NCBI GenBank assembly: GCA_964455745.1
Contig: CAYWBK010000002.1
Span: 1 to 46,875 of the forward strand
Reading direction: 5' to 3'
Origin: an uncultured Armatimonadia bacterium
GTDB taxonomy: Bacteria > Armatimonadota > Zipacnadia > Zipacnadales > CAYWBK01
Length of the DNA: 46,875 nt
In this document: positions 3,265 to 29,156 of the stretch, in pieces
Layout: each line of letters starts with the position of its first letter
How positions within the stretch are numbered: position 1 is the stretch's first letter
The notes under the pieces: generated by a model
Databases searched by the model: none
What the model was told of the DNA's origin: nothing
What the model saw: the letters and a program-made list of their open reading frames with translations, nothing else
Translations under genes and position numbers: made by a program

Positions 3265-6200
3265 ATGTCGCAGATCCAAGAGATCCACGAGACCGACTCA
3301 CCACCCCCCACCATCGTCCCCGCCGGTGACACCATCGAGATCTCCAAGGACTGGGAGCTGGCCCCGAGGCGGCTGCCGGAGCACTCGGACGCCGACTTCA
3401 AGGCGATCAAGGCCTCCTGGTGCAGGGGGCTCACGCAACGCTGGCGGTGGTGGATGGACTGCCGGGACCTGGGCCGGGGCCGGGATCCCCACGTGATCGG
3501 CCCGGCGGATACCACCTTCTCCGGAACCGTCACCCGATTCTGCTGGAGCCCCGCAGCCTTCCGCCAGGGGCGACGCCACGGGGACTTCTTCATCAAGTCC
3601 CGGCTGCTGGCCTTCGACCTGGACGACGGCACCCCGTACCGTGAGATCCGGGACGCCCTCGCCGCCGTCGGCATCGTCCCCTTCGTATCCTACCACAGCC
3701 CCAGCTCCAGGGCGGAGCACGAGCGATACCGCGTCGTCCTCCTCCTGGACTCCTACGTGACCCGTGCAACCGCATACTCGAACCTCGTCGCCCACTGCAT
3801 GAAGCACCTCCTGCGGGGCCACTGCGATCCGGACTGCAAGGACGCCGCCCGGGTCTTCTTCCCCGGCCCGGAGCTCATCGAGGCGAACGAGCCCGCCGAC
3901 TGCCTCCTCGGGTTCGAGGACCTCGTGGCCGCCATCGAGGTCAGGATCAGGGAGGCCGATCGCCACGGCAACGCCGCCAGGACCGCCCGGGAGGTCAGGG
4001 AGCGATGCGGAGCCGCCGATGACGGGGGGATCGGAGCAGCGACGCCTTCCGGGCCTCGCACACGACGCTCGGCCACGGAAGTCGTCGATCCCATCGCAGG
4101 GGGCGAGGAAACGACTCTCGCCCCCTGCGATGGCCCGATGGCGAACTGCGATGATTCCCCCCCTCGTTCGGATTCCAGCGATCATGGGGACGAGGACTCA
4201 CCGCACGACTCCGAATATGACGGATTCCCGACCCACGACGACTCTCATATATCGTTGCGGGTCGGAGATTCGTCATCACTGGAGTCAGCCGGACGTGGGG
4301 AGGATTCCCGAACTGACGGATTACCGACGCACGACGACTCCTATGTATCGTTGCGGGTCGGGAATCCGTCATTTCCCGAGTCTGCCGGGGCCACGGAGGA
4401 GTTCTTCGATCCCACCCCCCCTGGACTTCCTGCCCGCCGTGATGGCCTGGTGCCGCCGCAGGCGGCACCAGGCGGAACGACATCGGCGGCCGCCCCCCTC
4501 GTCCACGTGCGAGGGTTCCCCGGCCTGCTGCCGAGGGAGTGTGCCCTCGCCGCCGAGCTGGTGACCGGGCTCACCCCGGAGGAACTCGAATCCCTTCCAG
4601 ACCCGGATGCCGAGGTCCACGGGTGGCTGCGGGAGCCCGAGCTCTTCGGCCTGATGGCGAACGTGTGCGGGATCAGGGGGGGACGGGACTGGTTCCTGGG
4701 GACGCTCCAGCAGCATCCGCACCTCTACGGGCACTTCGGCGAGGGCCACTGGGAGGCCCGAATCAGGACCCACCGGAACAACGCCCGGGAGCCCCAGCGG
4801 TGCGATCGCTTCTGCCCCCACGCCGACGCGTGCGATCACGCCGACACGATCCTGCGAACGATCCGCTCTCGTTCCAGCCTCAGGATCACCTCCCGGCGGG
4901 ACCTCGTGTCGCTGGGTGAGGCCAGGCGGATGCTGTGGGGGCTGGTCCCGGATCTCCTGGCCGATCGCACGCCGGGGAGGGTGGACGTGGTGCATGCGGA
5001 GCCGGGCATCGGCAAGTCGGAGTGCTACATCGAGTGGCTCGCCCGGCTCGGGATCGCCGCCATCGTCGCCGTACCGACCCACCGGCTCAAGGACCAGATC
5101 GCCGCCCGCCTCCGGCGGGCGGGCGTGTCCTGCCTCACGACGCCGGAGGTGCCCGAACTCCCGGCGGACCTCGCCGACGAGCTGGAGGCCCTCTACCGGG
5201 TCGGCGATCTCGATGGGGCCCGACGTTGGATCCTCGACCACCAGGCGACCCTCCCCGAGCTGAAGGCCTACGTCGGCGACCTGGAGCGGGCCCTCGCCAG
5301 CGACGGCACCGTCGTGACGACCCATGCCAGGCTCGTCCAGGTCCTGGACAGGATGGGTGACGAGAGGCCGGTCATCATCGACGAGGATCCCCTGAAGTGT
5401 TTGCGGCCCTGCGGCTCGGTGCCGCTGTTCGACCTCCTTCGCCTGCAGGAGCACATGCAGGGGGGCGATGTCGCGGGGGTGGAGGCGTTGGCGGAGTTCG
5501 TCGCCCTGCTGTATGCCCTACCGAACGGCACGACGATCGACACGCCGGAGGGGTTGCTCGGGAGGGTGGACCCGGCGGCCCACCTGGCGGCCGCCGGGAT
5601 CCACTCCAGGGTCATCTGCCTGCTGGGCTCGAAGCACGTGCTGGTCAGCGGGTCGGATTCGGCCAGGGCGGCCCACTACTGCTGTGGTCGAGACCTACCG
5701 GCGAACCGGCGGATCATCCTGCTCTCGGCGACGGCCAGCGAGGCCATCCACCGCCACGTGTTCGGCTCCGAAATGCGTTTCCACGACATCCCGCTCGCAG
5801 CCGCCGTCGGCCGGGTCGTGCAGTCGATGGGGAGGACGTACTCCCGCACCGACATCGAGCGGCGGGGGGTGCCCGAACTGCCGGAGGGCTACCTGTTCAT
5901 CGGGTTCAAGGCCATCGTGGACCGCTTCGGGGAGGATGCCATCGGGCACTTCGGGGCGATCGAGGGCCTGGACGAGTACGGGGGCAGGGACATCGCCGTC
6001 GTGGGCACGCCACACATGCGGGAGGAGACCTACCACCTGCTGGCCCACGCCCTGGGGCGGACGGATCGAGGGATGGAGCGGCTCGCCTACCGGACGGTGG
6101 AGCACGATGGCATGGAGTTCCGGTTCATGACCTATCGGGACGACCTGCTGCGGACCATCCAACTCCACCTCATCGGCTCGGAGCTGGAGCAGGCCGTGGG

Positions 6201-6282
6201 CCGAGCGAGGGTGCTGACGGAGGACTGCGAGGTGAGGGTGTACAGCAACCTGCCGCTGAGGAGGGCGAGGCACGAGGTGTGA
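3265..6282 (+). CDS. Replication protein: AEP-type primase-like N-terminal domain fused to a P-loop helicase
   Basis: N-terminal motifs are FDLDDG, YHSPSS...RYRVVLLL and DAARVFFPG (AEP-like DxD / sH / D..R.PG). C-terminal motifs are Walker A AEPGIGKSE, Walker B VIIDEDP and LLSATASE. The two halves are joined by an acidic low-complexity linker. Confidence 0.55.
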   Translation: MSQIQEIHETDSPPPTIVPAGDTIEISKDWELAPRRLPEHSDADFKAIKASWCRGLTQRWRWWMDCRDLGRGRDPHVIGPADTTFSGTVTRFCWSPAAFRQGRRHGDFFIKSRLLAFDLDDGTPYREIRDALAAVGIVPFVSYHSPSSRAEHERYRVVLLLDSYVTRATAYSNLVAHCMKHLLRGHCDPDCKDAARVFFPGPELIEANEPADCLLGFEDLVAAIEVRIREADRHGNAARTAREVRERCGAADDGGIGAATPSGPRTRRSATEVVDPIAGGEETTLAPCDGPMANCDDSPPRSDSSDHGDEDSPHDSEYDGFPTHDDSHISLRVGDSSSLESAGRGEDSRTDGLPTHDDSYVSLRVGNPSFPESAGATEEFFDPTPPGLPARRDGLVPPQAAPGGTTSAAAPLVHVRGFPGLLPRECALAAELVTGLTPEELESLPDPDAEVHGWLREPELFGLMANVCGIRGGRDWFLGTLQQHPHLYGHFGEGHWEARIRTHRNNAREPQRCDRFCPHADACDHADTILRTIRSRSSLRITSRRDLVSLGEARRMLWGLVPDLLADRTPGRVDVVHAEPGIGKSECYIEWLARLGIAAIVAVPTHRLKDQIAARLRRAGVSCLTTPEVPELPADLADELEALYRVGDLDGARRWILDHQATLPELKAYVGDLERALASDGTVVTTHARLVQVLDRMGDERPVIIDEDPLKCLRPCGSVPLFDLLRLQEHMQGGDVAGVEALAEFVALLYALPNGTTIDTPEGLLGRVDPAAHLAAAGIHSRVICLLGSKHVLVSGSDSARAAHYCCGRDLPANRRIILLSATASEAIHRHVFGSEMRFHDIPLAAAVGRVVQSMGRTYSRTDIERRGVPELPEGYLFIGFKAIVDRFGEDAIGHFGAIEGLDEYGGRDIAVVGTPHMREETYHLLAHALGRTDRGMERLAYRTVEHDGMEFRFMTYRDDLLRTIQLHLIGSELEQAVGRARVLTEDCEVRVYSNLPLRRARHEV
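4219..4410 (+). repeat. In-frame 96-nt tandem repeat (2 copies) in the primase linker
   Basis: Units start at 4219 and 4315. They encode DGFPTHDDSHISLRVGDSSSLESAG and DGLPTHDDSYVSLRVGNPSFPESAG. Confidence 0.8.
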
Positions 6283-6315: not shown

Positions 6316-7347
6316 CTACCGGGTCGTCCCTTTGTAGCTACGAAGCCAGTCACACACTGCACCGTAGTCCTTCAGCGATAGCTCGAGGCCAAGGTCCCGC
6401 TCGTACTTCCGTGCACTGCTAGTGAAGAACGACGTGGTGGCCAGCACCGCCATGTGTGCACCCGCCTTCTGCTTCGCACCGCATAGCTGCCGGACAAGCC
6501 CTACGTCGACCCGGTGGTTCGGCCCGAACCGCTTGCACTCGACGACGTAGATCACGCGTCCGAGTGCGTCGTTCCTCACCGCCCGGATGTCGTACCCGTC
6601 ATCCCAGGTCTCAGGCGTGAGTTCGACGTCATACCCCATGTCGGCCAGGAGATGGCTCACCAACTGCTCGAACTTGCGGGGGCGGAGTTCGTACAGCGAC
6701 TCAGGATGTCTCGCAAGGTACGCTATCAGTTCGTCGCTGATCGCCCTGACGTGCGTGATGACCAACGGGTCGGGGTCGTCTGTCCGGAAGACCTCCCGTG
6801 GTCCTTGATCTGTGACGACCCGCAAGAGCCGGATGAGGTCTGCCGGATCCCTGCCTTTGGCGATTGCGTAGGTGCTTGTATGCGACTTGATCCATTCGGC
6901 GGTCTGGTCATCGACGCACCTGACCGAGTAGAAGACGACCGGTCTCCTGTTGGCATCGTCCGCGAGGTACTTGCTGTAGAAAGTGAGGCCTGCTACCCAC
7001 TCCGGTACGGTCTCCATCCCAGGCCACGACGGGTGATCGGCACTCAGGCACGTTCCCAGCGGCCGGACGACGTCCTGGATGACAAGGCCTATCTCGTCAT
7101 CATGCTCCCGAAGCAGGCGTAGTGCCGTGTCGTTGTCGTTGGCGACGTGGACGGTGTATCCTTCGGCGGCCAGCACGGGCTCCATCGCTCCCGTCAGGAG
7201 GGCGTCGTCGTCGATGACTAGTATGGAACGCTGCGTAGAACTGCTGCGGCTCAACGTGATGTCTCCCTTGGGCGGAAGAGGTCTCGAAGCCCGAGGGCTG
7301 CTGGCCTCTGGCGGAGCTCCGTAACCACGATCACGGGGTACGTTCAT
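6316..7347 (-). CDS. Receiver (CheY-like) domain fused to an Mrr-type restriction endonuclease domain
   Basis: The N-terminus has ILVIDDD, LVIQDVVRP, VVFYSV and AIAKG, which are canonical REC acidic-pair/Asp/Ser/Lys positions. The C-terminus has LLADMGYDV...DDGYDIRAV...VVECKRF...LATTS (Mrr_cat D...ExK core). Confidence 0.65.
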   Translation of the reverse strand: MNVPRDRGYGAPPEASSPRASRPLPPKGDITLSRSSSTQRSILVIDDDALLTGAMEPVLAAEGYTVHVANDNDTALRLLREHDDEIGLVIQDVVRPLGTCLSADHPSWPGMETVPEWVAGLTFYSKYLADDANRRPVVFYSVRCVDDQTAEWIKSHTSTYAIAKGRDPADLIRLLRVVTDQGPREVFRTDDPDPLVITHVRAISDELIAYLARHPESLYELRPRKFEQLVSHLLADMGYDVELTPETWDDGYDIRAVRNDALGRVIYVVECKRFGPNHRVDVGLVRQLCGAKQKAGAHMAVLATTSFFTSSARKYERDLGLELSLKDYGAVCDWLRSYKGTTR

Positions 7348-7454: not shown

Positions 7455-7503
7455 GACCTCCCTTGCCTGGGCCCATCCGGGTTGCCACCCTCCCCGACGA
7501 CAT
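7455..7503 (+). promoter_or_regulatory. Island leader motif, copy 1 (upstream of the tyrosine recombinase)
   Basis: Sequence is GACCTCCCTTGCCTGGGCCCATCCGGGTTGCCACCCTCCCCGACGACAT. TTGCCN and TGCCAC are separated by 14 nt, as in most other copies. Confidence 0.5.
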
Positions 7504-7518
7504 CTGCAGGTGACCTGT

Positions 7519-7546
7519 GGGGAACATCACACCCATGATGTTCCCC
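7519..7546. promoter_or_regulatory. Perfect 11-bp-arm palindrome GGGGAACATCA-N6-TGATGTTCCCC
   Basis: Arms are 7519-7529 and 7536-7546. It lies between the leader motif and the recombinase start at 7638. Confidence 0.4.
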
Positions 7547-7637
7547 AGGTTCCGCCGGAGCCGTATGTCATCTCCGGCGGCGGTCGTCGCAAGCCCCCGA
7601 ATCGGGCAAACGACATGTGAGGGAAGGGTGAGACGAG

Positions 7638-8585
7638 ATGGAACTGACCCCATTCGTGACGAAGCTGGTGGCGGCACTCGAGGCCGACGACCTAGCTCCG
7701 GGGACGATCACGAGGACCAGAATCGACGCTGCCCAGTTCGAGGAGTTCCTGCGTGGTTCGACCGGCAGCGACCTCGACCCGAACGACGTACAGGTCGCCA
7801 CCATCGACCTGCAGGAGTTCCGCGGCTGGCTCCAGAGGAGGGACATGACCCCAGGCACGATTCAGAGGAAGTTCGCCAGCATCCGCAAGGCGTTACTCCT
7901 GCTGGCTCCCGAGGTCGCACTCAAGTTGAAGTGGCCCAAGCTGCCGACGCAGCAACTGCAGGCCCCCAGCGAGCTGGGACGCAACCTCCGCAACGCGATC
8001 CTGAGGGCAGCGGAGTCCCTGTCGCCCCGCGACGAGTGCATCATCAAGATGCTGCTCTTCACGGGGGCACGGGCATCGACGCTGGCAGCGGCTCGACTGT
8101 CGAACGTCCGCCTCGGCGAACGGAGCGGGGAGATCACCTACCATGCCTCCTCCAACAAGTCGAATCGTGAGTACACCGTGCCCCTCAACTCGGAGTGCCG
8201 TGCCGCCATCCGTCGCTACATTGCGGTGCGTCCGGAGGTCGAACACGACGCCCTGCTGTGCAGCGAACGCTTTCCCTTCGACCCCGTCACCCGCGGCGTC
8301 GTGTGGACGGTCTGGCACGAGCGGATGCGTGCCCTGCTGCCCAAGCAGATGCAGGATCGCGTCCACGGGCCACATCAAGCTCGCCACGACCTCTGCCGTC
8401 GCCTCACTTCAGGTGAAATCGGGCCGGACGGAATCCGGCGTCCGCCCGTGGCGATCTCGGACGCCGCCGCCATCATGGGGCATAGCGATCCCCGTGTGAC
8501 CGCCTCCGTCTACTCGAGGCCAGCACCGGAGGACCTCAAACGGGCACTGGACGAGCTGGTCGGGGACGAGGGCGAGGAGGTGTGA
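7638..8585 (+). CDS. Tyrosine recombinase (XerC/D-phage integrase family)
   Basis: N-terminal SAM-like core-binding region. Catalytic-type motifs TGARAS, HQARHD, MGHSD and SVYS (R...HxxR...H...Y). Confidence 0.7.
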   Translation: MELTPFVTKLVAALEADDLAPGTITRTRIDAAQFEEFLRGSTGSDLDPNDVQVATIDLQEFRGWLQRRDMTPGTIQRKFASIRKALLLLAPEVALKLKWPKLPTQQLQAPSELGRNLRNAILRAAESLSPRDECIIKMLLFTGARASTLAAARLSNVRLGERSGEITYHASSNKSNREYTVPLNSECRAAIRRYIAVRPEVEHDALLCSERFPFDPVTRGVVWTVWHERMRALLPKQMQDRVHGPHQARHDLCRRLTSGEIGPDGIRRPPVAISDAAAIMGHSDPRVTASVYSRPAPEDLKRALDELVGDEGEEV

Positions 8586-8914: not shown

Positions 8915-9310
8915 GTGACGCTGGAGGGCAGAACTCCCATGACGCTCCACCCGAAGCGACGCTTCGCCGATCGAGCCAGAGCCTATGCCCGCTACCGCCC
9001 CACCTACCCGTCCGCGGTGGTCGGGACCCTCCGCCGAGACCGTGGGTTGACGCCCGAACACGGGGTTGCCGACGTCGGTTCCGGCACCGGTCTGCTCAGC
9101 CGCTTGCTCCTGGACAGCGGCAACACGGTCCAGGGCGTCGAACCGCACAAGGCGATGCGGGCGGAGGCGGTGCACTTGTCGGGGTACTCACCGTCGGTGA
9201 TCGTTGCGGGAGCTCCGAGAGCACAGACCGTGGTCGGGTCCGACCTGATTGGGACACCCCAGTCCCTTCGCCTGTGTCCGCAGCGTCGCACTCCGGCATG
9301 TCCGGCATAG
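8915..9310 (+). pseudogene. 5' fragment of a class I SAM-dependent methyltransferase (truncated)
   Basis: RFADRARAYARYRPTYP then motif I VADVGSGTGLLS then GVEPHKAMRAEA. The ORF then degenerates and stops after roughly half the length of a typical member, directly before the next gene. Confidence 0.4.
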
Positions 9311-9347
9311 GGGTGTCCACCGAACGCGTCCTCGACTGAGGTGCTCC

Positions 9348-10328
9348 GTGGGTTGGCAGATCGAATGGACAGAGCCGCTCGTGATCCGGTTACCCGAAGC
9401 CCTCACGCGGCAGGAAGAGGACCGGTTCTGGGAGAGCGTCCTGCTCGCCACTTCCCGCGAGACACCGCGGGAGGACGTCACCGTGGACATGTCCCAAGTC
9501 CGGTACATGACCATGGAGCAGTGCCTTCTTCTCGTCAAAGTATTCCGCCGGTTGCGGAGCCTCGACGTTCGCCTCAGCGTTACGTGGCCACGGAGCGATC
9601 CCGTGCTGCGTACCATGCACCGGTGGGGCGTCCCGGGCGTAATAGAGCAGGCGGCTGGCCCAGACCTCGCGGCGACGTTCCCGACTGAGTATGCAGCCCG
9701 CCTGTACTCCAGGCGGACGATTCCCGACGTCAGCGGACAGGAGGTCCCGCTGATGGACAGGCACGTCAACACGATAGTCCATCTGGATCTCACACGCGGA
9801 TGGACACAACACGTCTTCAGCCCACTGGCGGTCGCTGCCGACTCGCTATGGTCATCGCCTGTTGGACGGCTATCCATCGGTACCACGGACCGGTTCAGTG
9901 ACCTGTCATTCATCGCTGTATGGGAGACACTTGCGAACATACACGACCACGGAGGAGCCTGGGGCTTGGTGGGGATAGGGTCAAGTGGCGTCGGGCCCCA
10001 CCGTGTTCTCTCCGTGAGCTTCATCGACGCAGGCAGCGGGATCGCGGCAACCCTTCGGGAAGCTGTGCCCGACTACGCCGAACTGGGCGATCGTGAGGCC
10101 CTCGCCCTTGCGATGCGGCCGGGCATCTCGAGGTACCCGGGCGAGGGTCGGGGCATGGGGCTCCATGAGGCCTCACAGCACACGCTCTCTGCAGGGGGGG
10201 GCATGCGGGTGAGGTCGGGACAGGCTGTGCTGAGTGTGGGCCGTCGGCATTCGGATGAGTACGTCCGCAACCAGGCGGATGTCGGTGGCACGCAGATCAC
10301 CTTTGAGTACCCGCTCCCCGAGCAGTGA
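9348..10328 (+). CDS. STAS-like domain fused to a GHKL (HATPase_c, RsbW-like) ATPase
   Basis: GTG 9348 is preceded by GAGGTG. The N-terminus (VIRLPEAL...VTVDMSQVRYMTMEQCLLLVKVFRRL) is STAS-like. The C-terminus has N-box ETLANIHDHG, G1 IDAGSGI and G2 GEGRGMGL. No HisKA/DHp region was seen. Confidence 0.5.
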   Translation: MGWQIEWTEPLVIRLPEALTRQEEDRFWESVLLATSRETPREDVTVDMSQVRYMTMEQCLLLVKVFRRLRSLDVRLSVTWPRSDPVLRTMHRWGVPGVIEQAAGPDLAATFPTEYAARLYSRRTIPDVSGQEVPLMDRHVNTIVHLDLTRGWTQHVFSPLAVAADSLWSSPVGRLSIGTTDRFSDLSFIAVWETLANIHDHGGAWGLVGIGSSGVGPHRVLSVSFIDAGSGIAATLREAVPDYAELGDREALALAMRPGISRYPGEGRGMGLHEASQHTLSAGGGMRVRSGQAVLSVGRRHSDEYVRNQADVGGTQITFEYPLPEQ

Positions 10329-14008: not shown

Positions 14009-15004
14009 TCACTCACGGTACCCACTGAGAAGGTCTCTGAAGTCGTTGAAGTCCTTCAGGCTGAGCCTTATCCCCACGGAACGCTGCCCCCACTCGCATG
14101 CTTCCTTCGTGAAGGAGGAGGTCGTCGCAAGCATGGCTCTGTCCGCTCCCATCCCGCTCGCCGCACCTTCGAGCCTCTGCACGATCCCAAGCCCGACACG
14201 GTTGCTGCGACGGTATCTCTTGCACTCGACCACGAGCAGCACATCGCTGGCCCAGTCGGTCTTGGTGGCGATGATGTCGATTCCGCCGTCCTTGCTCATC
14301 CTCGTGAGGTCGACATCGTAGCCCATGTCGGCCAACAGCCATGCAACGACTTCCTCGTATAGCCTGGGCCGCAACTCGTACATGTACTCGGGATGCGTGG
14401 CCAGGTACCGAATGAGTTCGTCATTGACCTCGCCCAGCTCAAGGCGGAGTGCAGGAGAGATCACATTCCGTGCGTAGATCGTCTCACGTGTGTGGTCAAG
14501 TGCCAGCCGCACCTTCGAGCGGAACGACCTCGAATCGAAAGGTATCGAGAACCAGTATGTGCCTGGCCGCAGCGACAAGCTAGGAGGGGCAGCGTCTAGC
14601 ATTGACGTGACGAAGATGCACGGCCTGCGGTCTGTATGCTGCTCGAGGTACCGGCGGTAGAGGCGAAGGCCGGGGTACCACCTTTCCTCCTCTGTGCTGT
14701 CCCGCAGGGATCCGTCCGGGTCTACCTCGTCGCCCATCCGCGTGCTATGGAATACCAGCTCCGTGATCACCAGGGCGATCTCTCTATCGTGCTGTCTGAG
14801 GAGATGCACCGCCTCCGCATACGTTTCCGCGACCCTGTGATCGTAGCCGTCCACGTCGAACACCGTGGCCATCACTTCGATGATCTCCGGGATATCGATG
14901 ACCAGGAGGATCAGTGGTCGCTTATCCAGAATGGCCTCCATCGAGTGTGCTCTCCTTGCCCAGGCCGCCATCACGACGCGAGGGCGACCAATGTTCGGGG
15001 GCAC
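14009..15004 (-). CDS. Degenerate receiver-like domain fused to an Mrr-type endonuclease domain (paralog of 6316..7347)
   Basis: Alignable by eye to 6316..7347 along its length (ELRPR, LLADMGYDV, VVECKRY, LATTSSFT). The receiver positions are changed: VIDIPE, VITELVF, FVTSM, and no Lys at the K position. Confidence 0.6.
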   Translation of the reverse strand: MPPNIGRPRVVMAAWARRAHSMEAILDKRPLILLVIDIPEIIEVMATVFDVDGYDHRVAETYAEAVHLLRQHDREIALVITELVFHSTRMGDEVDPDGSLRDSTEEERWYPGLRLYRRYLEQHTDRRPCIFVTSMLDAAPPSLSLRPGTYWFSIPFDSRSFRSKVRLALDHTRETIYARNVISPALRLELGEVNDELIRYLATHPEYMYELRPRLYEEVVAWLLADMGYDVDLTRMSKDGGIDIIATKTDWASDVLLVVECKRYRRSNRVGLGIVQRLEGAASGMGADRAMLATTSSFTKEACEWGQRSVGIRLSLKDFNDFRDLLSGYRE

Positions 15005-15982: not shown

Positions 15983-18037
15983 CTACCCGGTGTCCGAGAA
16001 GCCCCCCGCAGTGGCCTTCAGGAAGTAACACACCTTGTCATCGAAGTGCAGATGGCTCAGCTCTCGTGGCGGGGGAACGGGGGGAGGTCCCTCGATGATG
16101 ACCGGGCGGATGTAGTCGTCCCCCTTGTGCTCCAGGGCGTAGTGCCACTCCTTCTGCACCCACTCGGACTCCCTGGCCGCGGTAGACCAGAACAGGAACA
16201 TGACGTCGCTCTCGTCGATGTGACGCCACATCTCCTCCTCCCAGCGATCCGCTGGCTCCAGACTCAACACATCCTGCCAGAACTCGATCCCGGCCGGGGA
16301 CAGCATCCGAACGCAGCGGAGCACCTCCTCGCGATCTCTCGACGCGTATGAGATGAACGCAGTCTCGTAGCGTCGGGCCTGACCGACGGGGCCACGCCGG
16401 GCGGGAGGCACGACGCCATCGAGAGGGACCACGGTCAGCCTGAACCTCACCTCGCCGATCGGCACGGATTCCTGAGCGATGAGTACCGTCCCGATATGCG
16501 ACCCCACCCGGGCGTCAGGTGGCACATAGACATCGAAGCTGACCCACTCGACGTGGCCCCGCCACGTGACCTCCCTCACAGGCTGCGGAACGACCAGTTC
16601 GGGCAGGGCAACCTCGAACGCGAGCCTGACCCCTTGGCCGATCCTCGTCCCCAGGGATGTCGCCCCTCGACGCCCTGCCCCCTCATCGAACTCTCTGGCC
16701 TGATCCATCACCAGTTGAGGCAGCTCAGGTAGGTGTGCGTACACCTGGACCATGATGTGGTCCCCGGTTGGTGCCTGCGGCGGAGCGAGGACGGTGCAGT
16801 CGACGTCGTCTGCTGCGTCGTCCGCGGCGTCACCGCAGACTCCCCGTGTCTCGGCTCGTGGAAGGAGGAGCGTCTGATCGGCCCTCGTCTTCTCCCTGGC
16901 TCGGAACGGACCGTCAGAATCGACGATGATGTCTTCATCAGCCCCCTTCGTGACCGGGAACTGACGATCGGAATCGACCATGATGTCTTCATCCGCCCCC
17001 TCCGTGACCGGGAACGGACTGTCAGAATCGAGAGTCGGGCCAGGCCGAGGGCGAGTCATAGATACCGAGTGGAGACAGGTCCCCGTCTCGGCGTCCCACA
17101 CCCTCACTGTACAGTCATGCGAGCCCGAGACGATCCACCGGCCGTCTGGGGAGAACGCCACACTCCTGACGGCGTCCTCGTGCCCAGAGAGGCAGGCGAC
17201 TTGCTCCCTCGCCTCCGCATCCCACACCCGCACCGACCAGTCCTCAGATCCCGAGACGATTCGCCGACCATCCGGCGAGAAGGCCAGTTCCGTAACCGAC
17301 TCCACGTGCCCACGGAGGCAAGCGACCTTCTCCCAAGACGCCGCGTCGCACAACCACAGCGTCCCGTCCCCCTCCCCCGAGACCACCCACCGACCGCCCG
17401 GCGAGAAGGCCACCCACATGACTGGGGAGGGGCGGCCGTAGAGACAGGCAACCTCCCCCCTCGCCTCCACATCCCACACCCGCATCGTCAGATCGAGGGA
17501 GCCCGAGACGATCCACCGACCGTCCGGCGAGAGAGCCACACTCATGATGGCCGACGCGTGCCCGCGGAGGCAGGCGACCTCCTCCCACGACCCCGCGTCC
17601 CACAGCCTCACCGTATGGTCATGCGACCCCGAGACGACCAACCGACCGTCTGGGGAGAACGCCACGCTCGTGACGCCGTCGTCGTGCCCGCAGAGGCAGG
17701 CGACTTGCTTCCTCGTCTCCGGATCCCACACACGCACCGTCGCATCGCGGGAACTGGAAACGATCCACCGACCGTCCGGCGAGAAGGCCACGCCCGTGAC
17801 GGCCCTCGCGTGCCCGAAGAGGCACGCGACCTCTTCGCATGAACCCGCGTCCCACAGCCTCACCAGACCGTCCAGTTGCCCCGAGACCAACCACCGACCG
17901 TTCGGGGAGAATGCCACGGTCCATACCTGATCCACTTCAAGGCGATCCCGGTTCACGTCATCATCCTCCCGAGTGGCCGTGCCATCCCCGATCCGGATGG
18001 GCTGGCTGGCAGCCACTTGGCATAGGTGGCCATCCAC
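15983..18037 (-). CDS. WD40-repeat / beta-sandwich-like / C-terminal TIR-domain protein
   Basis: About eight WD40 blades (…VAFSPDGRWIVSGS.D.TVRVWD… repeated). A 19-aa tandem linker repeat follows (DSDxxFPVTxGADEDIxV). The C-terminus is YETAFISYASRDREEV...FLFWSTAARESEWVQKEW (TIR_2-like). The start is a GTG and is uncertain; another frame upstream (17953..18186) also looks protein-like. Confidence 0.65.
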   Translation of the reverse strand: MDGHLCQVAASQPIRIGDGTATREDDDVNRDRLEVDQVWTVAFSPNGRWLVSGQLDGLVRLWDAGSCEEVACLFGHARAVTGVAFSPDGRWIVSSSRDATVRVWDPETRKQVACLCGHDDGVTSVAFSPDGRLVVSGSHDHTVRLWDAGSWEEVACLRGHASAIMSVALSPDGRWIVSGSLDLTMRVWDVEARGEVACLYGRPSPVMWVAFSPGGRWVVSGEGDGTLWLCDAASWEKVACLRGHVESVTELAFSPDGRRIVSGSEDWSVRVWDAEAREQVACLSGHEDAVRSVAFSPDGRWIVSGSHDCTVRVWDAETGTCLHSVSMTRPRPGPTLDSDSPFPVTEGADEDIMVDSDRQFPVTKGADEDIIVDSDGPFRAREKTRADQTLLLPRAETRGVCGDAADDAADDVDCTVLAPPQAPTGDHIMVQVYAHLPELPQLVMDQAREFDEGAGRRGATSLGTRIGQGVRLAFEVALPELVVPQPVREVTWRGHVEWVSFDVYVPPDARVGSHIGTVLIAQESVPIGEVRFRLTVVPLDGVVPPARRGPVGQARRYETAFISYASRDREEVLRCVRMLSPAGIEFWQDVLSLEPADRWEEEMWRHIDESDVMFLFWSTAARESEWVQKEWHYALEHKGDDYIRPVIIEGPPPVPPPRELSHLHFDDKVCYFLKATAGGFSDTG

Positions 18038-19240: not shown

Positions 19241-20728
19241 CTACGCCTCCCCCAACCCATTCGCGATCTGTCTGAACTCGTCGAGTGCCGTCTCCAGGTC
19301 GTCGACGATCTCCTGAACCAGCACGTCGGGCTCGGGCAGGTTGTCGGATTCCTCCAGGCTCTCGTCCCGCAGCCAGAAGATGTCCAGGTTCAGCTTGTCA
19401 CGCTTGGCGAGCTCGTCATAGGTGAAGCACCGCCACCTACCCTCCGGCGTCTCTTCCGACCAGGTCGAGGTCCGCTCATGCCGGTTGTCGGTGTTGTAGC
19501 ACTCGACGAACCCGTCCAGATCAGCTCGCACCATCGGGCTCGTCTTCAGAGTGAAGTGCATGTTGGTCCGCAGGTCATAGACCCACAGCTTGCTGGTCGC
19601 TGGTTCCTCTCGAGCCGGGCGGGCGTCGAAGAACAGCACATTGGCCTTGACGCCTTGGGCATAGAAGATGCCGGTGGGCAGCCGCAGGAGTGTGTGGACG
19701 TCGCAGGCGTGCAGCAGGTTGCGGCGGACGGTCTCGCCAGCACCGCCCTCGAACAGCACGTTGTCGGGCACCACGATCGCACATCGCCCACTGGCCTTGA
19801 GGAGTGACCTGACGTGCTGCAGGAAATTGAGCTGCTTGTTCTTGGTCGTGGTCCAGAAATCGGTGCGTTCGTAGGACGTGTCCTCCCGGTCCAGGCCGCC
19901 CTCTTCGTTCACCACCGAGATGCTGCTCTTCTTGCCGAATGGCGGATTGGTCAGCACCATGCTGACACGCTCGCTCGGCTCCAGGGCGAGGCTGTCTCGG
20001 TACTCGATGGGGCACGGGTCAGCATTGATGCCATGCAGGTACAGGTTCATGATGCACAGGCGGGCCGTGTTCGGCACGATGTCGGTGCCCCTCACGAAGG
20101 CCTCCCGCAGGTGCCGCTTCTGGTCAGTGTCCAGGTCCCGGCCGTACTTGTCAGACACGTACCGGTGTGCCTCCAGTAGGAAGCCACCCGTCCCACAGGC
20201 TGGGTCAAAGACCGTGTCGTCAGGCTTGGGCCGCATGACTTCCACGATGGCCGAGATCAACTCGCGGGGGGTGAAGTACTGACCCGCCCCGCCCGCCACC
20301 TCGGTCATGGTTCGCTTGAGGAGGCCCTCGTAGATGTCGCCCTTCACGTCCGCCTGCATGGCGGACCAGCGTTCGACATCTATGAGCTCGGCGATGAGAC
20401 GCCGCAGGATGGAGGGGTTCTGTATCTCACACCTGGCTCGCCGGAACACCTCGCCGAGCATCCCCGTCTGCGTGCCGAGGTGCTCCAGGATGTGCCGGTA
20501 CTGGATCAGAAGATCCTCGCCATCCACAGCCAACAGGCTCTGCCAGTCGTACCCCGAGGGCACCATCGACGGGCGGCTGTAAGGAGGCTTCGTTTGCTCG
20601 TCCGCCATCTTCAGGAAGAGCAGAAAGGTGATCTGTTCCGTGTAGCCGAGATAGGAGAGCCCATCGTCTCTCAGGACGTGGGCGAAGCTCCAGGCCTTGT
20701 TGACGATCTGTTGGGTGTCGGTTGCCAT
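19241..20728 (-). CDS. hsdM: Type I restriction-modification methyltransferase subunit (HsdM, copy 1)
   Basis: HsdM_N-like N-terminus (KAWSFAHVLRDDG...ITFLLFLKMADE), motif I DPACGTGGFL and motif IV TNPPFG. Confidence 0.85.
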   Translation of the reverse strand: MATDTQQIVNKAWSFAHVLRDDGLSYLGYTEQITFLLFLKMADEQTKPPYSRPSMVPSGYDWQSLLAVDGEDLLIQYRHILEHLGTQTGMLGEVFRRARCEIQNPSILRRLIAELIDVERWSAMQADVKGDIYEGLLKRTMTEVAGGAGQYFTPRELISAIVEVMRPKPDDTVFDPACGTGGFLLEAHRYVSDKYGRDLDTDQKRHLREAFVRGTDIVPNTARLCIMNLYLHGINADPCPIEYRDSLALEPSERVSMVLTNPPFGKKSSISVVNEEGGLDREDTSYERTDFWTTTKNKQLNFLQHVRSLLKASGRCAIVVPDNVLFEGGAGETVRRNLLHACDVHTLLRLPTGIFYAQGVKANVLFFDARPAREEPATSKLWVYDLRTNMHFTLKTSPMVRADLDGFVECYNTDNRHERTSTWSEETPEGRWRCFTYDELAKRDKLNLDIFWLRDESLEESDNLPEPDVLVQEIVDDLETALDEFRQIANGLGEA

Positions 20729-20734
20729 ATTGGT

Positions 20735-21730
20735 TCAGCCCCAGACCCTTGCAGTGCTGCTGTCGTAGTAGTGTACCTGTACCGCGGGCCCACCGAACGC
20801 TTGTCGTTCGGCCGCGATCCGCTCGGCGGCCCCCCGGGTGGTTGCGTTACTTGGCGAGTCGGGATCCCCGTAGAGGCCAACGAACAGCCTATCGAGCCCT
20901 CTGGCCTCGGCGATGGCTGCACGGATATGGGCATCGGCGTCCGAGAGGGAGTGGCCGTAGATGACAAGCGTGCCGTCAGTGTTACGCAGAACCTGCATGC
21001 ACGTGCTCAGATACTCGCTGGCCGCGACCCTTGCGGCCTTCGCACCTGCACTGCCCTCGGAGACGAACAGGGGGACCTCGCCAGCAGCCAGCTCGGCTCG
21101 GATGCTTGTCAGCAGCGGATCCGTGCCGCATCGACGACGCTTCACGGTCCAATCGGCGCTCTCGTATAGGTGCAGAGCACCATGTAGATAGAACATCGTG
21201 GCAGTCGAGAGACCGGCTCGCGAAAAAGTCAACAGACCGGGGGCATCTCCCCAGTTCCCGAAGCTGTCCTCCCTCTGTGGGCCCACCTCGTTTAGCACCC
21301 AGTAGAGCAACAGGTCGTAGTTGGTCGTGAAGACTCTGCCGTAGGGCTCGACGAACGCAGCACAGATCTCCATCCGGTCATGGTCTATCGGGGCCCAAGT
21401 GTCCGGGTGTACCACCGTGAGTGCGGCGAGGAACGCCTCTCGTAGCTGGTCCACGCACTGCGAAACAAAGGGAAGCTGGACGCCGAAATGCTGGGCGAGC
21501 CACGCTGCTTCGTTGAACTCCTGCATCACGCCCTCAATGTTGGCCGTGCAGAGGTGGTCAAACACATCAACAAGCTGTTGGTCGATGGCACCGACCTGGG
21601 AGGCCACGTCTACCAGGCTGGTGTAACCGAACCGGGTATCGCAGGCGACGCTGAAACCGTTGCCCAGCAGGAGATGTGGGCAGGTGTTGCCTGCCTGCTG
21701 CATTACGCAGTCGTAGCTGATGACATCCAT
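20735..21730 (-). CDS. SIR2-superfamily-like protein (DUF4917-type) inserted between hsdS and hsdM
   Basis: ATG 21730 has GGGAGG upstream. Motifs are LLLGNGFS, FTTNYDLLLYW and YLHGALHL (the GxGxS / TTNYD / LHG pattern of SIR2-like proteins). Its stop lies 6 nt before the hsdM start. Confidence 0.5.
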   Translation of the reverse strand: MDVISYDCVMQQAGNTCPHLLLGNGFSVACDTRFGYTSLVDVASQVGAIDQQLVDVFDHLCTANIEGVMQEFNEAAWLAQHFGVQLPFVSQCVDQLREAFLAALTVVHPDTWAPIDHDRMEICAAFVEPYGRVFTTNYDLLLYWVLNEVGPQREDSFGNWGDAPGLLTFSRAGLSTATMFYLHGALHLYESADWTVKRRRCGTDPLLTSIRAELAAGEVPLFVSEGSAGAKAARVAASEYLSTCMQVLRNTDGTLVIYGHSLSDADAHIRAAIAEARGLDRLFVGLYGDPDSPSNATTRGAAERIAAERQAFGGPAVQVHYYDSSTARVWG

Positions 21731-21798
21731 TGCCTGGCCTCCCGACGGGATGCACTCTGGCACGTCAACCGGCTCTATCCCTACGGCTGCAACGTGGC

Positions 21799-23322
21799 TT
21801 AGGGACGCCTCTCCTCCCTGATCATCTCCAGCAGCACGCTGGCAGGCTCGTCGTTGGGGTCCTGAGGCACGAGGTTGCCCTCGAAAGCACGCTTCAGCAC
21901 CGCCTGCCGCAGGCGGGTGCAACGCGTCAGTCCGGCGTCAACCTGCCTCTCCATCGCGTCCAGCATGGAGAGCCGTCGCTCCACCTCGGCAACGATCTCG
22001 GTCTGCTCGGCGAGAGGGGGGAGTGGAACGGGCATTGGCCGGATGTCATCGAGGTTGAAGTTTGCTCTGGCGACATCCGCTTTGGTGTCTGTGATGTGCG
22101 ACTGGACTAACGGTGACAATATGAATGCCACCAAGAGGCGGTTGAGCATCCCTCCGCTCACCAACCTGATGATCGCGACGGCTTGGTTCAGGTTTGCTCC
22201 TGCGATTTCATCAGTGGCAACAGCAGACCGCCCAACGGACGCTCCCACGAGGTTCAGCAGAACATCCCCGGCCTCGATGATCGAGTTCCGGTGTGTCTCG
22301 TTGAACATGGGGGAGAGGAACGCCAACTCAGACAAGTCGAGGCTGCCCCACCGCACGTTCTGGCTACGCACGAAGGCAACGCCGTCGTCTGTGTACTCGT
22401 AGCCCTGCCAGTTGGGAGAGGTGCCCTTTGTCACCAGCGTCGTGAACTGCTCCACGCTCGCCCACGCCCAACCATCCGGCAACTCCGGCAGATCGCTCGT
22501 GTCCGGTGCGGCAGGAGACTTGTACTTCGCCTGCCAGCCCGCCGGGGGCTTCTGCCCCTTCTCGGCGAATCTGGCCAGTTGCTCCTCTTCCCACTTCCGG
22601 CGGCGTTCCTGCAGGGTGCGGTCCAGCAGCACCGACGCCGGTTCGGTGCCGGGGTGCTTGGCCCGCCACTCCTCGGTCAGCCTGCCCCCGGCCGCCGCCT
22701 TCAGCACCGAGGCCCGGTAACGCTTCAGGTTCGCCCGTACCCGCACCAACGCGGCAGTCGCGGCATCGAGCTTCGAGAACAGCTCGTCGAGCGTCGCCAC
22801 GATGCGGGCCTGCTCGTTGGGCGGCGGCACGGGGAATTCGACCTCGGAGAGTCTGCCCGCACCCAGATGGGCGATGTTGGTCGTGATCGTGCCGATCGCC
22901 CGGAAGCGGCCGCTGTGCATGTAGTACCGGAAGACGGCAAGGGCGTAGCTGGCCGATACACAGGGTCCAGCCCTGAAGCGGACGAGCGTGTTGGTGAAGC
23001 ACGCCCCTGGCACCTCATCGCGGTACATGGCCGGACGTCCGAGCAGTTCGGGGCTCTGCCCCTCATTGAGCAGGATGTCGCCTACCGCGAGCCGGTAGGT
23101 CTCGAACTCGGCGTCCGTGAAGTTCATCTGCATGACGTCCGAGGTATCGATCCGATCCTCGAACACGTTGGCAACCCGTAGGTACGGACGCATGTCCGGT
23201 CCCTCATGGTGCTTGGGGCTACGCTGCCGCCCGAGCTGGACCCGACCCACTTCGCCGATCGTGGACCAGCACCAACCCGGCGGCAACGCTCGAAGGCCAG
23301 TCGGGGAGCTACTATCGCTCAT
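21799..23322 (-). CDS. hsdS: Type I R-M specificity subunit (HsdS, copy 1)
   Basis: Two target-recognition-type halves are separated by a long helical spacer (…RIVATLDELFSKLDAATAAL… and …EQTEIVAEVERRLSMLDAME…). Its ATG overlaps the hsdR stop (ATGA). Confidence 0.8.
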   Translation of the reverse strand: MSDSSSPTGLRALPPGWCWSTIGEVGRVQLGRQRSPKHHEGPDMRPYLRVANVFEDRIDTSDVMQMNFTDAEFETYRLAVGDILLNEGQSPELLGRPAMYRDEVPGACFTNTLVRFRAGPCVSASYALAVFRYYMHSGRFRAIGTITTNIAHLGAGRLSEVEFPVPPPNEQARIVATLDELFSKLDAATAALVRVRANLKRYRASVLKAAAGGRLTEEWRAKHPGTEPASVLLDRTLQERRRKWEEEQLARFAEKGQKPPAGWQAKYKSPAAPDTSDLPELPDGWAWASVEQFTTLVTKGTSPNWQGYEYTDDGVAFVRSQNVRWGSLDLSELAFLSPMFNETHRNSIIEAGDVLLNLVGASVGRSAVATDEIAGANLNQAVAIIRLVSGGMLNRLLVAFILSPLVQSHITDTKADVARANFNLDDIRPMPVPLPPLAEQTEIVAEVERRLSMLDAMERQVDAGLTRCTRLRQAVLKRAFEGNLVPQDPNDEPASVLLEMIREERRP

Positions 23323-26099: not shown

Positions 26100-26206
26100 G
26101 CGGCACCCCCTGGGGCACTCTCCAGTCTGTCGGTGCTGGGCTGACGACATGTTCGCTCTCTGCCCCGCCGTGTCCTCCGCTGGTTCACAGATCGGCAACA
26201 ATCGCA

Positions 26207-27469
26207 TCACGGCATCCTTCGGCGGGGAATCGGCGACACATCCGAGGCCGAGCATGGCCTTCTGGCCGAAGCCAACACCCTACATCGTCCCGAGAGCAGA
26301 TCCTCGATCGCCTCCCGTCTCAGCACCTCCAACGCAGCGATGCTCTTCCGACTGGTGCGTTCCACCTCGTCCACGGCCTCGAGGTCTCGAGCGATGCTGA
26401 TCTGCTCTTCGATCGTGGCCGGGATGGGGATCGGGAGATCGCCCAAGGCACCGTGGTCGATGGTGGTCATCCTGGACGCCTTCGCCGTCGACCGCAGGTG
26501 CCGCTCGGCCGCCTCCGTCTGGCAGTAGTGCCACAGGTAGTGTGGCGAGACCCTCTGGACGTCGGGGCAGAACCTGGCGAGGTGGCAGTCGAAGAGGATC
26601 GGCTGTTCGGTGGCCCTCACCAGGATCGAGCGACCGATGCCGTCGGGGATGATCGACGACCGCAGGAACAGGCAATCGCCGGATCCGACGCCGAACCTCT
26701 CGACCTCCGCATCGGTGGCCTCGACCCTCGCCAGGGCTCCGACGTCGAGACCATCCCACGAGAACACGTCCGGTGGCCGGATGATGGGAACCCCGCCCCG
26801 GTCGGCGTCCACCGCACTCGGCCTGAAGACCCCGTTGCGAAGGGGGATCGCAGCGAGGTCCTTCAGCCTGGCGGTGTGCCACACTTCGCCGACAGGGCGG
26901 AACGCTGCCCAGGCCATCGCTCGTGCGACCTCTCGTGATGCTACGATGGTTCGCTCCGTCTCCTCGATCGCCTCATCGATGCTCACCAGCAGGCCGCAGA
27001 TCCAGACCCGTTCGTCCTCGGGTGGTACGAAAATGGGACAGCGTCGCAGTTCGTGCCATGAGGTGCGGGGCATGTCGATGCCCCCGCTCTTCGCGATGGC
27101 GAACCCGATCACGTTCCGACTCTGGCACACGTAGAGCAGGAACTCCGGTTCCAGGTCGTCGTTCGGCACCAGCACCAGGATGTCGGCCGAGCAGCTCCCA
27201 TCGCGGTCGGCGAGGTTCACCTTCCCGAACCGTGGCCGCAGGCCGCTGAACAGGACGTCCCCCCTGTGGCACCTCGCCTTGGCCCCCGAGAGGGCTGGCG
27301 ACTCAGAGACCCGGGCGTACCTCCTGTCGGGCACCATGTCCTCGATCCCGACGTGAGCCCCCATCGCCGGAGCCCTGGTGGCGGGACGCGGGCGACACAG
27401 GTCTCCGAGGGTTCCCACCTTCCACCCCGGGGGCGTCTCACGGGCATGCTCAGGGAGTTGGATCGACAC
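26207..27469 (-). CDS. hsdS: Type I R-M specificity subunit (HsdS, copy 2)
   Basis: PPGWKVGTLGDL start, two TRD-like halves and the conserved ...EEQISIARDLEAVDE...LLSGRCRV end. It overlaps the hsdM2 stop by 20 nt. Confidence 0.75.
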   Translation of the reverse strand: MSIQLPEHARETPPGWKVGTLGDLCRPRPATRAPAMGAHVGIEDMVPDRRYARVSESPALSGAKARCHRGDVLFSGLRPRFGKVNLADRDGSCSADILVLVPNDDLEPEFLLYVCQSRNVIGFAIAKSGGIDMPRTSWHELRRCPIFVPPEDERVWICGLLVSIDEAIEETERTIVASREVARAMAWAAFRPVGEVWHTARLKDLAAIPLRNGVFRPSAVDADRGGVPIIRPPDVFSWDGLDVGALARVEATDAEVERFGVGSGDCLFLRSSIIPDGIGRSILVRATEQPILFDCHLARFCPDVQRVSPHYLWHYCQTEAAERHLRSTAKASRMTTIDHGALGDLPIPIPATIEEQISIARDLEAVDEVERTSRKSIAALEVLRREAIEDLLSGRCRVLASARRPCSASDVSPIPRRRMP

Positions 27470-28958: not shown

Positions 28959-29156
28959 CGGATGTTCCCCTCGATGATGCCCGTCGTGCGGTCGAGACGC
29001 CGCACGGCCAAGCGTGTTGTCATGTTCCCGTCCCGCCGTGGCGTCTCCTCCGACTTCGCAAGTCCCGCCGCAGGTCGCTCGGCAGCCCCTATCGGCGAGG
29101 AACTCCCCGCCTCGGCGGGGAAACGTCGTGCACCGACGCCAGCACCCGGAGTGCCC

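Follow-up and report, generated by a model that had tools for sequence, protein, structure and literature searches.

A CheY-like receiver joined to an Mrr-type nuclease in a defence-laden mobile island: a candidate phosphorylation-gated effector

A receiver–nuclease gene with two candidate starts

A stretch of 46,875 nucleotides from an uncultured Armatimonadia bacterium (contig CAYWBK010000002.1 of assembly GCA_964455745.1), referred to here as the window, carries on its reverse strand a gene whose product joins an N-terminal CheY-like receiver, through a linker predicted to be disordered, to a C-terminal Mrr_cat nuclease core of the PD-(D/E)xK type. We hold this architecture to be almost certain. 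A reading made earlier from the letters alone (the sequence-only reading) had proposed such a fusion with the active-site quintet of the receiver complete, and profile matches, structure prediction and family conservation agree in bearing it out. Every motif that it quoted, namely VIDDD, LVIQDVVRP, VVFYSV, AIAKG and the D...ECK of the nuclease, could be located to the codon (Table 1).

The gene can be read from an ATG, which gives the longest open reading frame (ORF), or from a downstream TTG, and a Shine-Dalgarno-like motif is found at both. The TTG is the start in a public gene call (JGI 3300041809, Ga0455670_0006192). Since the N-termini of homologs begin about 10 residues ahead of strand β1, the 312-aa form that starts at the TTG is favoured, and all residue numbers refer to that form (P0001, the target).

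Table 1. Features of the receiver–Mrr gene, its paralog, a kinase-linked relative and the surrounding island. Coordinates are positions in the window, except in the two rows marked L079, which give positions at that locus. aa, amino acids; CDS, coding sequence; pLDDT, predicted local distance difference test; R-M, restriction–modification.
Feature	Coordinates	Strand	Remarks
Receiver–Mrr gene, longest ORF	6316..7347	-	ATG 7347, 343 aa
Probable CDS of the receiver–Mrr gene	6316..7254	-	TTG start 7254, 312 aa, P0001
Receiver (REC, CheY-like) domain, residues 10-149	6808..7227	-	AlphaFold2 model, Foldseek and profile matches
Acidic pair D15-D16 (metal-binding 'DD', in VIDDD), just past β1	D15 7210-7212; D16 7207-7209	-	
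Predicted phospho-acceptor D61 (in LVIQDVVRP), end of β3	7072-7074	-	
Family-specific 22-residue insertion β3-α3, residues 62-83	7006..7071	-	Model pLDDT about 64-71 (low)
Ser110 ('T' position, in VVFYSV), end of β4	6925-6927	-	
Lys133 (in AIAKG), directly after β5	6856-6858	-	
Interdomain linker, residues 150-173	6736..6807	-	Predicted disordered; pLDDT <50 at residues 152-169
Mrr module, residues 174-305	6340..6735	-	Helical lead-in and Mrr_cat PD-(D/E)xK core
Nuclease triad (D...ECK)	D222 6589-6591; E239 6538-6540; K241 6532-6534	-	
Paralog receiver–Mrr gene	14009..15004	-	Probable start M at 14941, 310 aa, P0021
Paralog acceptor site 'ITELV'	14753-14767	-	
Paralog nuclease motifs	DGGIDI 14273-14290; VECKR 14216-14230	-	Mrr catalytic triad intact
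STAS-domain protein	9249..10328	+	C-terminal GHKL-like region; lies between the two receiver–Mrr paralogs
HATPase_c ORF (partial), L079	2-709		74.9 bits; His-box-like 'WGHTIAGKSLNI'
P0174, receiver and Mrr module, L079	900-1811		Response_reg 33.7 bits, above cut-off
AAA_13/ABC-ATPase protein, 831 aa	145-2640	-	PADLOC PDC-S06, full-length, 221 bits
1,005-aa gene, convergent with target	3265-6282	+	Weak DEAD-box Walker-A region; centre low-complexity, repeat-like
Xer-like tyrosine recombinase, divergent from target	7638..8585	+	
WD40-TIR protein, 684 aa	15983-18037	-	Seven N-terminal WD40 repeats; C-terminal TIR_2, ThsB-like (PADLOC)
Type I R-M cluster	19241-29303	-	Two hsdM, two hsdS, one hsdR
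Multi-methyltransferase, 1,729 aa	31074-36263	+	SAM-methyltransferase region, N6_N4 DNA methylase, C-5 cytosine methylase
Large serine recombinase	40561-42246	+	Overlaps tRNA-Asn by ~40 nt, at island junction
tRNA-Asn, island end	42205-42279	-	
Complete rRNA operon, adjoining tRNA-Asn	42341-46875		5S-23S-tRNA-Ala-tRNA-Ile-16S

Receiver fold and active site

The AlphaFold2 model of the target, built on a 30-sequence alignment, has a mean pLDDT of 85.3 and follows the (βα)5 order β1-α1-β2-α2-β3-α3-β4-α4-β5-α5. Its strands span residues 10-14 (β1), 34-38 (β2), 55-60 (β3), 106-110 (β4) and 128-132 (β5), with helices α3 and α5 at residues 84-100 and 137-149. When the receiver half was compared with solved structures in Foldseek, the target-normalised template modelling (TM) scores were 0.86 for RR468 (root-mean-square deviation 2.2 Å), 0.84 for PhoP and 0.76 for CheY. 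The sequence-only reading had named an N-terminal domain of another fold as one outcome that would undo it; the fold found is that of a receiver.

Profile searches point the same way, and with the model they put the receiver assignment far beyond chance. A profile made from the N-terminal domains of the two receiver–Mrr paralogs of the window matched 6,238 proteins at E<=1e-3 in a library of 1.84 billion representative proteins, searched with no word index. The top scorers are long proteins that match over a receiver-sized stretch, and both of the two checked against Pfam carry a strong Response_reg domain. The same profile matches solved receivers, among them CpxR (3.5e-6), MtrA and ArcA.

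Canonical receivers place a pair of acidic residues, an acceptor Asp, a Ser or Thr and a Lys at the C-terminal ends of β1, β3, β4 and β5, respectively (PMC12632262). In the model, D15/D16, D61, S110 and K133 occupy these same four positions. From the residues and the modelled geometry, the receiver is predicted to be chemically competent for phosphorylation on Asp.

A rare receiver–Mrr family

Taken together, exhaustive and indexed searches gave a very small clade whose members share this architecture and an insertion between β3 and α3. It comprises the target (P0001), its paralog in the window (P0021), P0023, P0024, P0051, P0170, P0171, P0172 and the fragment P0034. Each sequence derives from a metagenome or Logan assembly and is known from one or two contigs. 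Conservation was counted over the seven intact members, with the paralog and the fragment P0034 standing outside the seven. Three clade members pass the Response_reg cut-off, P0051 at 38.2, P0170 at 41.5 and P0172 at 32.8 bits.

The receivers of the seven share a mean pairwise identity of 29%, and 13 of their 134 ungapped columns are invariant. D15, D16 and D61 account for three of those 13 (7 of 7 members), the Ser/Thr position is kept in all seven and the Lys in six, with Arg in its place in P0170. By our own estimate, all three Asp would turn out invariant by chance about once in a thousand cases if invariance fell at random on about 10% of columns. A clade-specific Arg64, three residues past the acceptor (D+3), is invariant in the intact members as well. 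The Mrr module is better conserved than the receiver, at a mean identity of 47%. The ORFs are intact in all members, and both catalytic sites are kept at 25-45% overall identity.

An indexed search with the full target protein found relatives for the Mrr half only, and one with the two-paralog receiver profile gave only two weak generic receivers. Among JGI metagenomes, a four-sequence receiver subset retrieved 63 loci, all of them generic receivers and none with an Mrr module. Full-text literature searches found no description of a receiver–Mrr_cat response regulator. The clade is a very rare, undescribed family.

The nuclease module and its other partners

The C-terminal half matches Mrr_cat (PF04471) at 76.8 bits against a cut-off of 21, and a conserved helical lead-in (DELIAYLARHPESLYEL) precedes this core. 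Its nearest solved structures are the catalytic domains of MspJI and AspBHI (4f0p and 4oc8; Foldseek E about 1e-7). Across 30 homologs, the conservation of D222 and K241 reaches 90% or more, and E239 is invariant in five of five aligned family members; within the alignment of the receiver–Mrr family, all three residues are invariant. In PADLOC, the Mrr half matches type IV methyl-directed restriction endonuclease (REase) models and four PDC-S02 models (E 4e-12 to 1e-8). Both the PADLOC and the Foldseek matches are limited to the catalytic domain, and no SduA/DUF4263 model was matched by the target at E<=0.01.

Elsewhere, homologs of the Mrr module carry a variety of N-termini. Precomputed Pfam assignments give a STAND-like ATPase (PF13191), pentapeptide repeats, L-asparaginase and XRE-HTH, and sigma-like, FHA-like and cold-shock-like regions were recognised by eye. 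Plasmids and viral contigs also carry such homologs, in every case lacking a receiver: the plasmid and phage collections hold no record that spans at least 80% of the target protein, and none of the 22 homologs on IMG/VR viral contigs has a receiver. Searched with the family alignment, GTDB representative genomes yielded only Mrr-half relatives with other N-termini. To judge from these arrangements, the Mrr module appears to behave as a typical swappable toxic effector under alternative sensors. The target nuclease is predicted to have no DNA-recognition domain of its own.

A paralog with a degenerate receiver

The second receiver–Mrr gene noticed by the sequence-only reading is a genuine paralog, 35% identical to the target over its full length. 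The complete set of phospho-acceptor residues, which holds for the target, does not extend to it: its acidic pair reads I-D, the acceptor Asp is replaced by Glu, the T position holds Thr and the Lys is replaced by Ile, and Arg64 has become Phe. The model retains a receiver-like fold (AlphaFold2, pLDDT 85.0), and the nuclease triad is present (Table 1).

A pseudo-receiver is defined in the literature as a receiver that misses at least one of the five active-site residues (PMC12632262), and among aspartate-less receivers Asp to Glu is the most frequent change, at 26% (PMC4395418, PMC12632262). The paralog resembles these proteins in having lost three of the five residues, in its Asp to Glu change and in the retained fold; the target differs from them, with all five residues present. 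As judged from its residues and its model, the paralog is by the published definitions a pseudo-receiver of the aspartate-less kind. The site residues have been lost as a block, the pattern expected if they work as one unit. The intact and the degenerate copy lie in one island, 6.7 kb apart and on the same strand. Phase variation, in which a recombinase would invert or shuffle the two paralogs, was considered and rejected on account of their direct orientation and of the single 62-nt stretch, at 73% identity, that they share.

Comparison with known systems

The closest functional parallel is Detocs, a three-gene operon in which DtcA is the kinase, DtcB a buffer receiver and DtcC a receiver–effector; its defence has been validated experimentally and depends on the His of the kinase and on the Asp (D58) in the DtcC receiver; in about 20% of Detocs operons the PNP effector is replaced, for example by an REase (PF18742), TOPRIM or transmembrane effector (bioRxiv 10.1101/2023.01.24.525353). 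Like DtcC, the target has an N-terminal receiver and a C-terminal predicted toxic effector and lies among defence genes. It differs in having no adjacent DtcA kinase or DtcB receiver in 46.9 kb, in an effector of the Mrr_cat family (PF04471) rather than of the PF18742, PNP, TOPRIM or transmembrane type, and in the clade-specific insertion of its receiver. Canonical receivers and kinases, used as a positive control in PADLOC 2.0.0, matched no Dtc model, which makes the silence of PADLOC on Detocs for the target void.

The sequence-only reading had spoken of an unusual defence or addiction logic. This was overstated: in Detocs a kinase already phosphorylates a receiver–effector, and REase and TOPRIM types are catalogued among its variants. 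Receiver-gated enzymatic effectors are thus known in defence, and by analogy the target would be a rare further case. Three features are genuinely unusual: the gene is an orphan, its receiver carries a conserved insertion next to the active site, and a pseudo-receiver paralog accompanies it.

On the nuclease side, the N-terminal domain of E. coli Mrr binds DNA, and that of MspJI and AspBHI binds modified bases. The target shares with these enzymes the PD-(D/E)xK Mrr_cat domain and its D...(E/Q)xK signature, but a receiver takes the N-terminal place, and the protein has no domain for reading DNA. Because the DNA-binding N-terminal domain is absent, the target is not a type IV enzyme of the E. 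coli Mrr type. The PADLOC candidate system PDC-S02, which is not validated, is alike in the nuclease half, and the match covers the nuclease only.

Shedu (SduA) proteins place a PD-(D/E)xK nuclease core under diverse N-terminal sensor domains (bioRxiv 10.1101/2023.08.10.552793). The target shares this design of a nuclease core regulated by exchangeable N-terminal domains, whereas its nuclease belongs to another family and has no DUF4263 core. Canonical receivers match the first ~100 positions of the PADLOC SduA model PDLC00405, the C-terminal part of PD-T4-6, and PDC-M60B, so receiver-bearing defence proteins are already present in PADLOC; the match to PDLC00405 suggests that a receiver-Shedu form exists.

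The island and a related mobile backbone

The window is a defence-laden mobile island that abuts an rRNA operon and a tRNA-Asn (Table 1). The target gene is convergent with the 1,005-aa gene, their stops 33 bp apart, and divergent from the tyrosine recombinase, a layout that the sequence-only reading had described correctly. Its label of primase for the 1,005-aa gene has no profile support: the only match is a weak one to DEAD, and the protein gave no other match in Pfam, PADLOC or the PDB. A D5-type primase-helicase is, separately, among the island cargo. Defence is also the probable role of the AAA_13 gene, which lies at the left contig edge. The domains of the WD40-TIR protein suggest a TIR effector whose sensor is a β-propeller, and the 1,729-aa protein appears to resemble the multi-methylase anti-restriction proteins of mobile elements. 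Within the type I R-M cluster, a DUF4917/SIR2-like gene (PADLOC PDC-S21, 273 bits) is nested between hsdM and hsdS.

One other long contig of the family, L012 (25.7 kb), holds P0023, which lies directly downstream, at a distance of 36 bp, of a GajB-like UvrD-PDDEXK gene and type III Mod and Res genes. The tyrosine recombinase of L012 (15232-16167, minus strand) shows 51.5% identity, from end to end, with that of the window, and it is the only neighbour of the receiver–Mrr gene common to both long loci. A further shared gene is represented by the window ORF 28653-30872 (plus strand), which is 42% identical over 69 aa to a backbone gene of L012 (1-218, minus strand) that runs off the edge of the locus. 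Five unrelated genes lie between P0023 and the recombinase in L012, and the genes between receiver–Mrr gene and recombinase are not homologous between window and L012. Genes held in common, with unrelated defence genes between them, point to related mobile backbones with swapped cargo, and the sequence comparison suggests that the window and L012 are such a pair. Relatives of the recombinase are all but absent from plasmids and representative genomes, and a search of GTDB representative genomes with it as the query found nothing.

Phosphorylation as a candidate switch

We give an even chance to the proposal that the target is an orphan response-regulator-type nuclease, whose receiver controls an Mrr-family DNA endonuclease. 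In its unphosphorylated form, the receiver would keep the nuclease inactive, and phosphorylation of D61, by a kinase encoded elsewhere or from a small molecule such as acetyl phosphate, would switch it to an active conformation. The active receiver would then drive the formation of a dimer or oligomer, as in many response regulators, and so license DNA cleavage. A nuclease of this kind, with no DNA-reading domain, would cut non-specifically, and the result could be an abortive-infection-like defence or an addiction effect in favour of the island. More speculatively, the pseudo-receiver paralog might serve as a phosphorylation-independent partner or variant of the effector.

Phospho-gating is motivated by two lines of evidence, the invariance of the acidic pair and the acceptor Asp in receivers that are only ~29% identical, and a sister receiver–Mrr protein that lies downstream of a kinase. 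This sister, P0174, is encoded 190 bp downstream of a HATPase_c ORF and on the same strand, on a 2-kb contig (Ga0134127_10159085, locus L079; Table 1). It has the same Mrr module as the target, at 49% identity over the aligned stretch (44% of the query). Its position beside the HATPase_c ORF indicates that a classical kinase-to-receiver-Mrr pair exists in nature. The pair is apparently undescribed, and a search of GTDB representative genomes with P0174 found nothing. For the proposal as a whole there also speak the canonical site geometry in the model, the joint loss of the site residues in the paralog, the complete nuclease triad, the swappable behaviour of the Mrr module, the defence genes around the target and P0023, and the precedent of Detocs.

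A series of observations weighs against this proposal, beginning with the kinase. Pfam scans of all sizeable ORFs in the window gave no HisKA, no Hpt and no above-cut-off HATPase_c domain, and a more sensitive phmmer scan of all 518 six-frame ORFs of at least 50 aa, with one kinase fragment and 116 hybrid histidine kinases as queries, found no kinase; these queries matched only the two receiver–Mrr ORFs, via their receivers only. Both methods agree with the sequence-only reading that the 46.9-kb window holds no histidine kinase, in a scan that stops short of the left part of the island, since the source contig extends only 42 bp beyond the left edge of the window. The window also has no stand-alone receiver, which the phmmer scan would detect. 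No histidine kinase, Hpt or stand-alone receiver lies beside the other clade loci that were read (L012/L013, L014, L015 and L080, with most contigs only 1-2.6 kb long), where the neighbours are DUF4145, PRiA4_ORF3, DUF7662 and DUF6731 genes. A mobile island that relied on a kinase of its host would be an awkward design, and P0174, the one relative that adjoins a kinase-type ORF, belongs to a different receiver lineage that is without the β3-α3 insertion.

The receiver itself adds further points of this kind. Of the two profiles that the sequence-only reading had named as a check, Mrr_cat passes comfortably and Response_reg (PF00072) does not: the target scores 27.0 bits, under the Pfam gathering cut-off of 30.2, and matches profile positions 1-50 only, a shortfall that we attribute to the 22-residue insertion after β3. 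This insertion, which is also missing from canonical receivers, adjoins the active site and carries Arg64 together with an 'RPxGxCL' motif. The low score and the insertion mark the receiver as atypical, and so do two residues next to the site. The residue after the Ser/Thr position (T+1) is Val, bulkier than the usual Ala or Gly, and that after the Lys (K+1) is Gly in place of the usual Pro. As bulky T+1 residues restrict access to the receiver active site (PMC12632262), these two residues would seem to weigh against easy entry of a small molecule. The predicted TM (pTM) score of the model is 0.54, at which the relative placement of receiver and nuclease is not predicted. The paralog, finally, suggests by its sequence and model that the scaffold can persist without a phospho-site and that phosphorylation may not be indispensable. 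On balance, phospho-gated nuclease defence as a whole stands for us at even weight, with the gating step as its weak link.

One protein in the window was examined as a possible phosphodonor. The sequence-only reading had called it a GHKL ATPase that lacks a DHp/HisKA region; the lack is confirmed, and the GHKL label is plausible but weak for what is a STAS-domain protein. Its HATPase_c match is sub-threshold (15.3 bits, E 0.029) yet covers profile positions 9-110 of 111, and N-box, G1 and G2 motifs, without a His-box, can be made out by eye. It would seem to resemble a Ser kinase of the anti-sigma type joined to its STAS antagonist. GHKL kinases of this STAS-linked class phosphorylate Ser on STAS partners. 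With no DHp domain or His-box, a sub-threshold HATPase_c match and a class that acts on Ser, the protein was rejected as the donor.

Alternative readings

The main rival holds that the receiver is a phosphorylation-independent scaffold for dimerisation or sensing, whose insertion could bind a trigger derived from a phage or from the element. We regard it as unlikely but deserving of serious attention: no kinase accompanies any clade member, the paralog keeps fold and nuclease with its phospho-site destroyed, the conserved insertion brings its invariant Arg64 next to the site, the Pfam score is sub-threshold and many non-phospho sensors drive the same Mrr module elsewhere. A scaffold of this kind would leave the invariant DD/D and the near-invariant S/T and K hard to explain, unless through phospho-chemistry or metal or ligand binding. 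Pseudo-receivers, moreover, by definition miss at least one of these residues (PMC12632262), and the existence of P0174 shows that a receiver–Mrr protein can be linked to a kinase. A self-contained immune or addiction switch that needs no kinase can also be drawn up with the phospho-site in use, in which the orphan receiver, with its insertion and invariant Arg at D+3, would autophosphorylate from an acetyl phosphate-like donor and so read the metabolic state, or the insertion would gate the reaction on a phage factor, while the paralog would buffer or template assembly of the nuclease as a one-protein analogue of DtcB/DtcC. We consider this version improbable.

Slightly lower still do we place an ordinary type IV (modification-dependent) or non-specific Mrr endonuclease that acts constitutively on foreign DNA and is merely tuned by its receiver. 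The PADLOC matches to type IV methyl-directed REase and PDC-S02 models, the modification-dependent enzymes MspJI and AspBHI as best structural matches and the R-M genes all around would fit such an enzyme; yet these PADLOC and Foldseek matches span the catalytic domain only, and the receiver occupies the position where a DNA- or modification-reading domain would be found. Much the same low credence goes to mobile-element housekeeping or addiction, for instance maintenance or post-segregational killing together with the Xer-like recombinase, in place of anti-phage defence. Here the recombinase as sole common neighbour, the further backbone gene shared with L012 and the presence of serine and tyrosine recombinases and a D5-type primase-helicase are in favour. 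Spacing and orientation differ, however, with the two genes adjacent and divergent in the window and five genes apart in L012, and the conserved DNA upstream of the recombinase accompanies that gene and not the receiver–Mrr gene; no recombinase is found on the short family contigs, which are too short to judge. That the gene is decaying or non-functional and the fusion an evolutionary relic is very improbable. The extreme rarity of the family, confined to metagenomes, and the degenerate receiver of the paralog would suit a relic, but ORFs intact throughout, two catalytic sites conserved at such overall divergence and confident structure models do not.

If the phospho-gating proposal is true, phospho-relay immunity would reach restriction-fold nucleases, beyond the Detocs effectors tested experimentally (PNP and TM-hydrolase). 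It raises the question of how a kinase-less mobile receiver comes by its phosphorylation, whether by hijacking a host kinase, by sensing acetyl phosphate or not at all. The family is tiny and known from metagenomes only, and the concept has a precedent in Detocs. An intact receiver–nuclease and an Asp to Glu pseudo-receiver in one island amount to a natural experiment that bears on how pseudo-receivers originate and work, and a compact nuclease of ~310 aa that could be switched on by chemical means would be of practical use.

Conserved DNA upstream of the recombinase

The window (~7490-7640) and L012 (~16170-16330) share conserved DNA, about 150 bp long, upstream of the tyrosine recombinase. 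This DNA goes with the recombinase and not with the receiver–Mrr gene, and in the recombinase unit it may serve as operator or promoter, or as a site of recombination. It contains a perfect 8-bp palindrome, GAACATCA-N6-TGATGTTC, at ~7523-7548 of the window.

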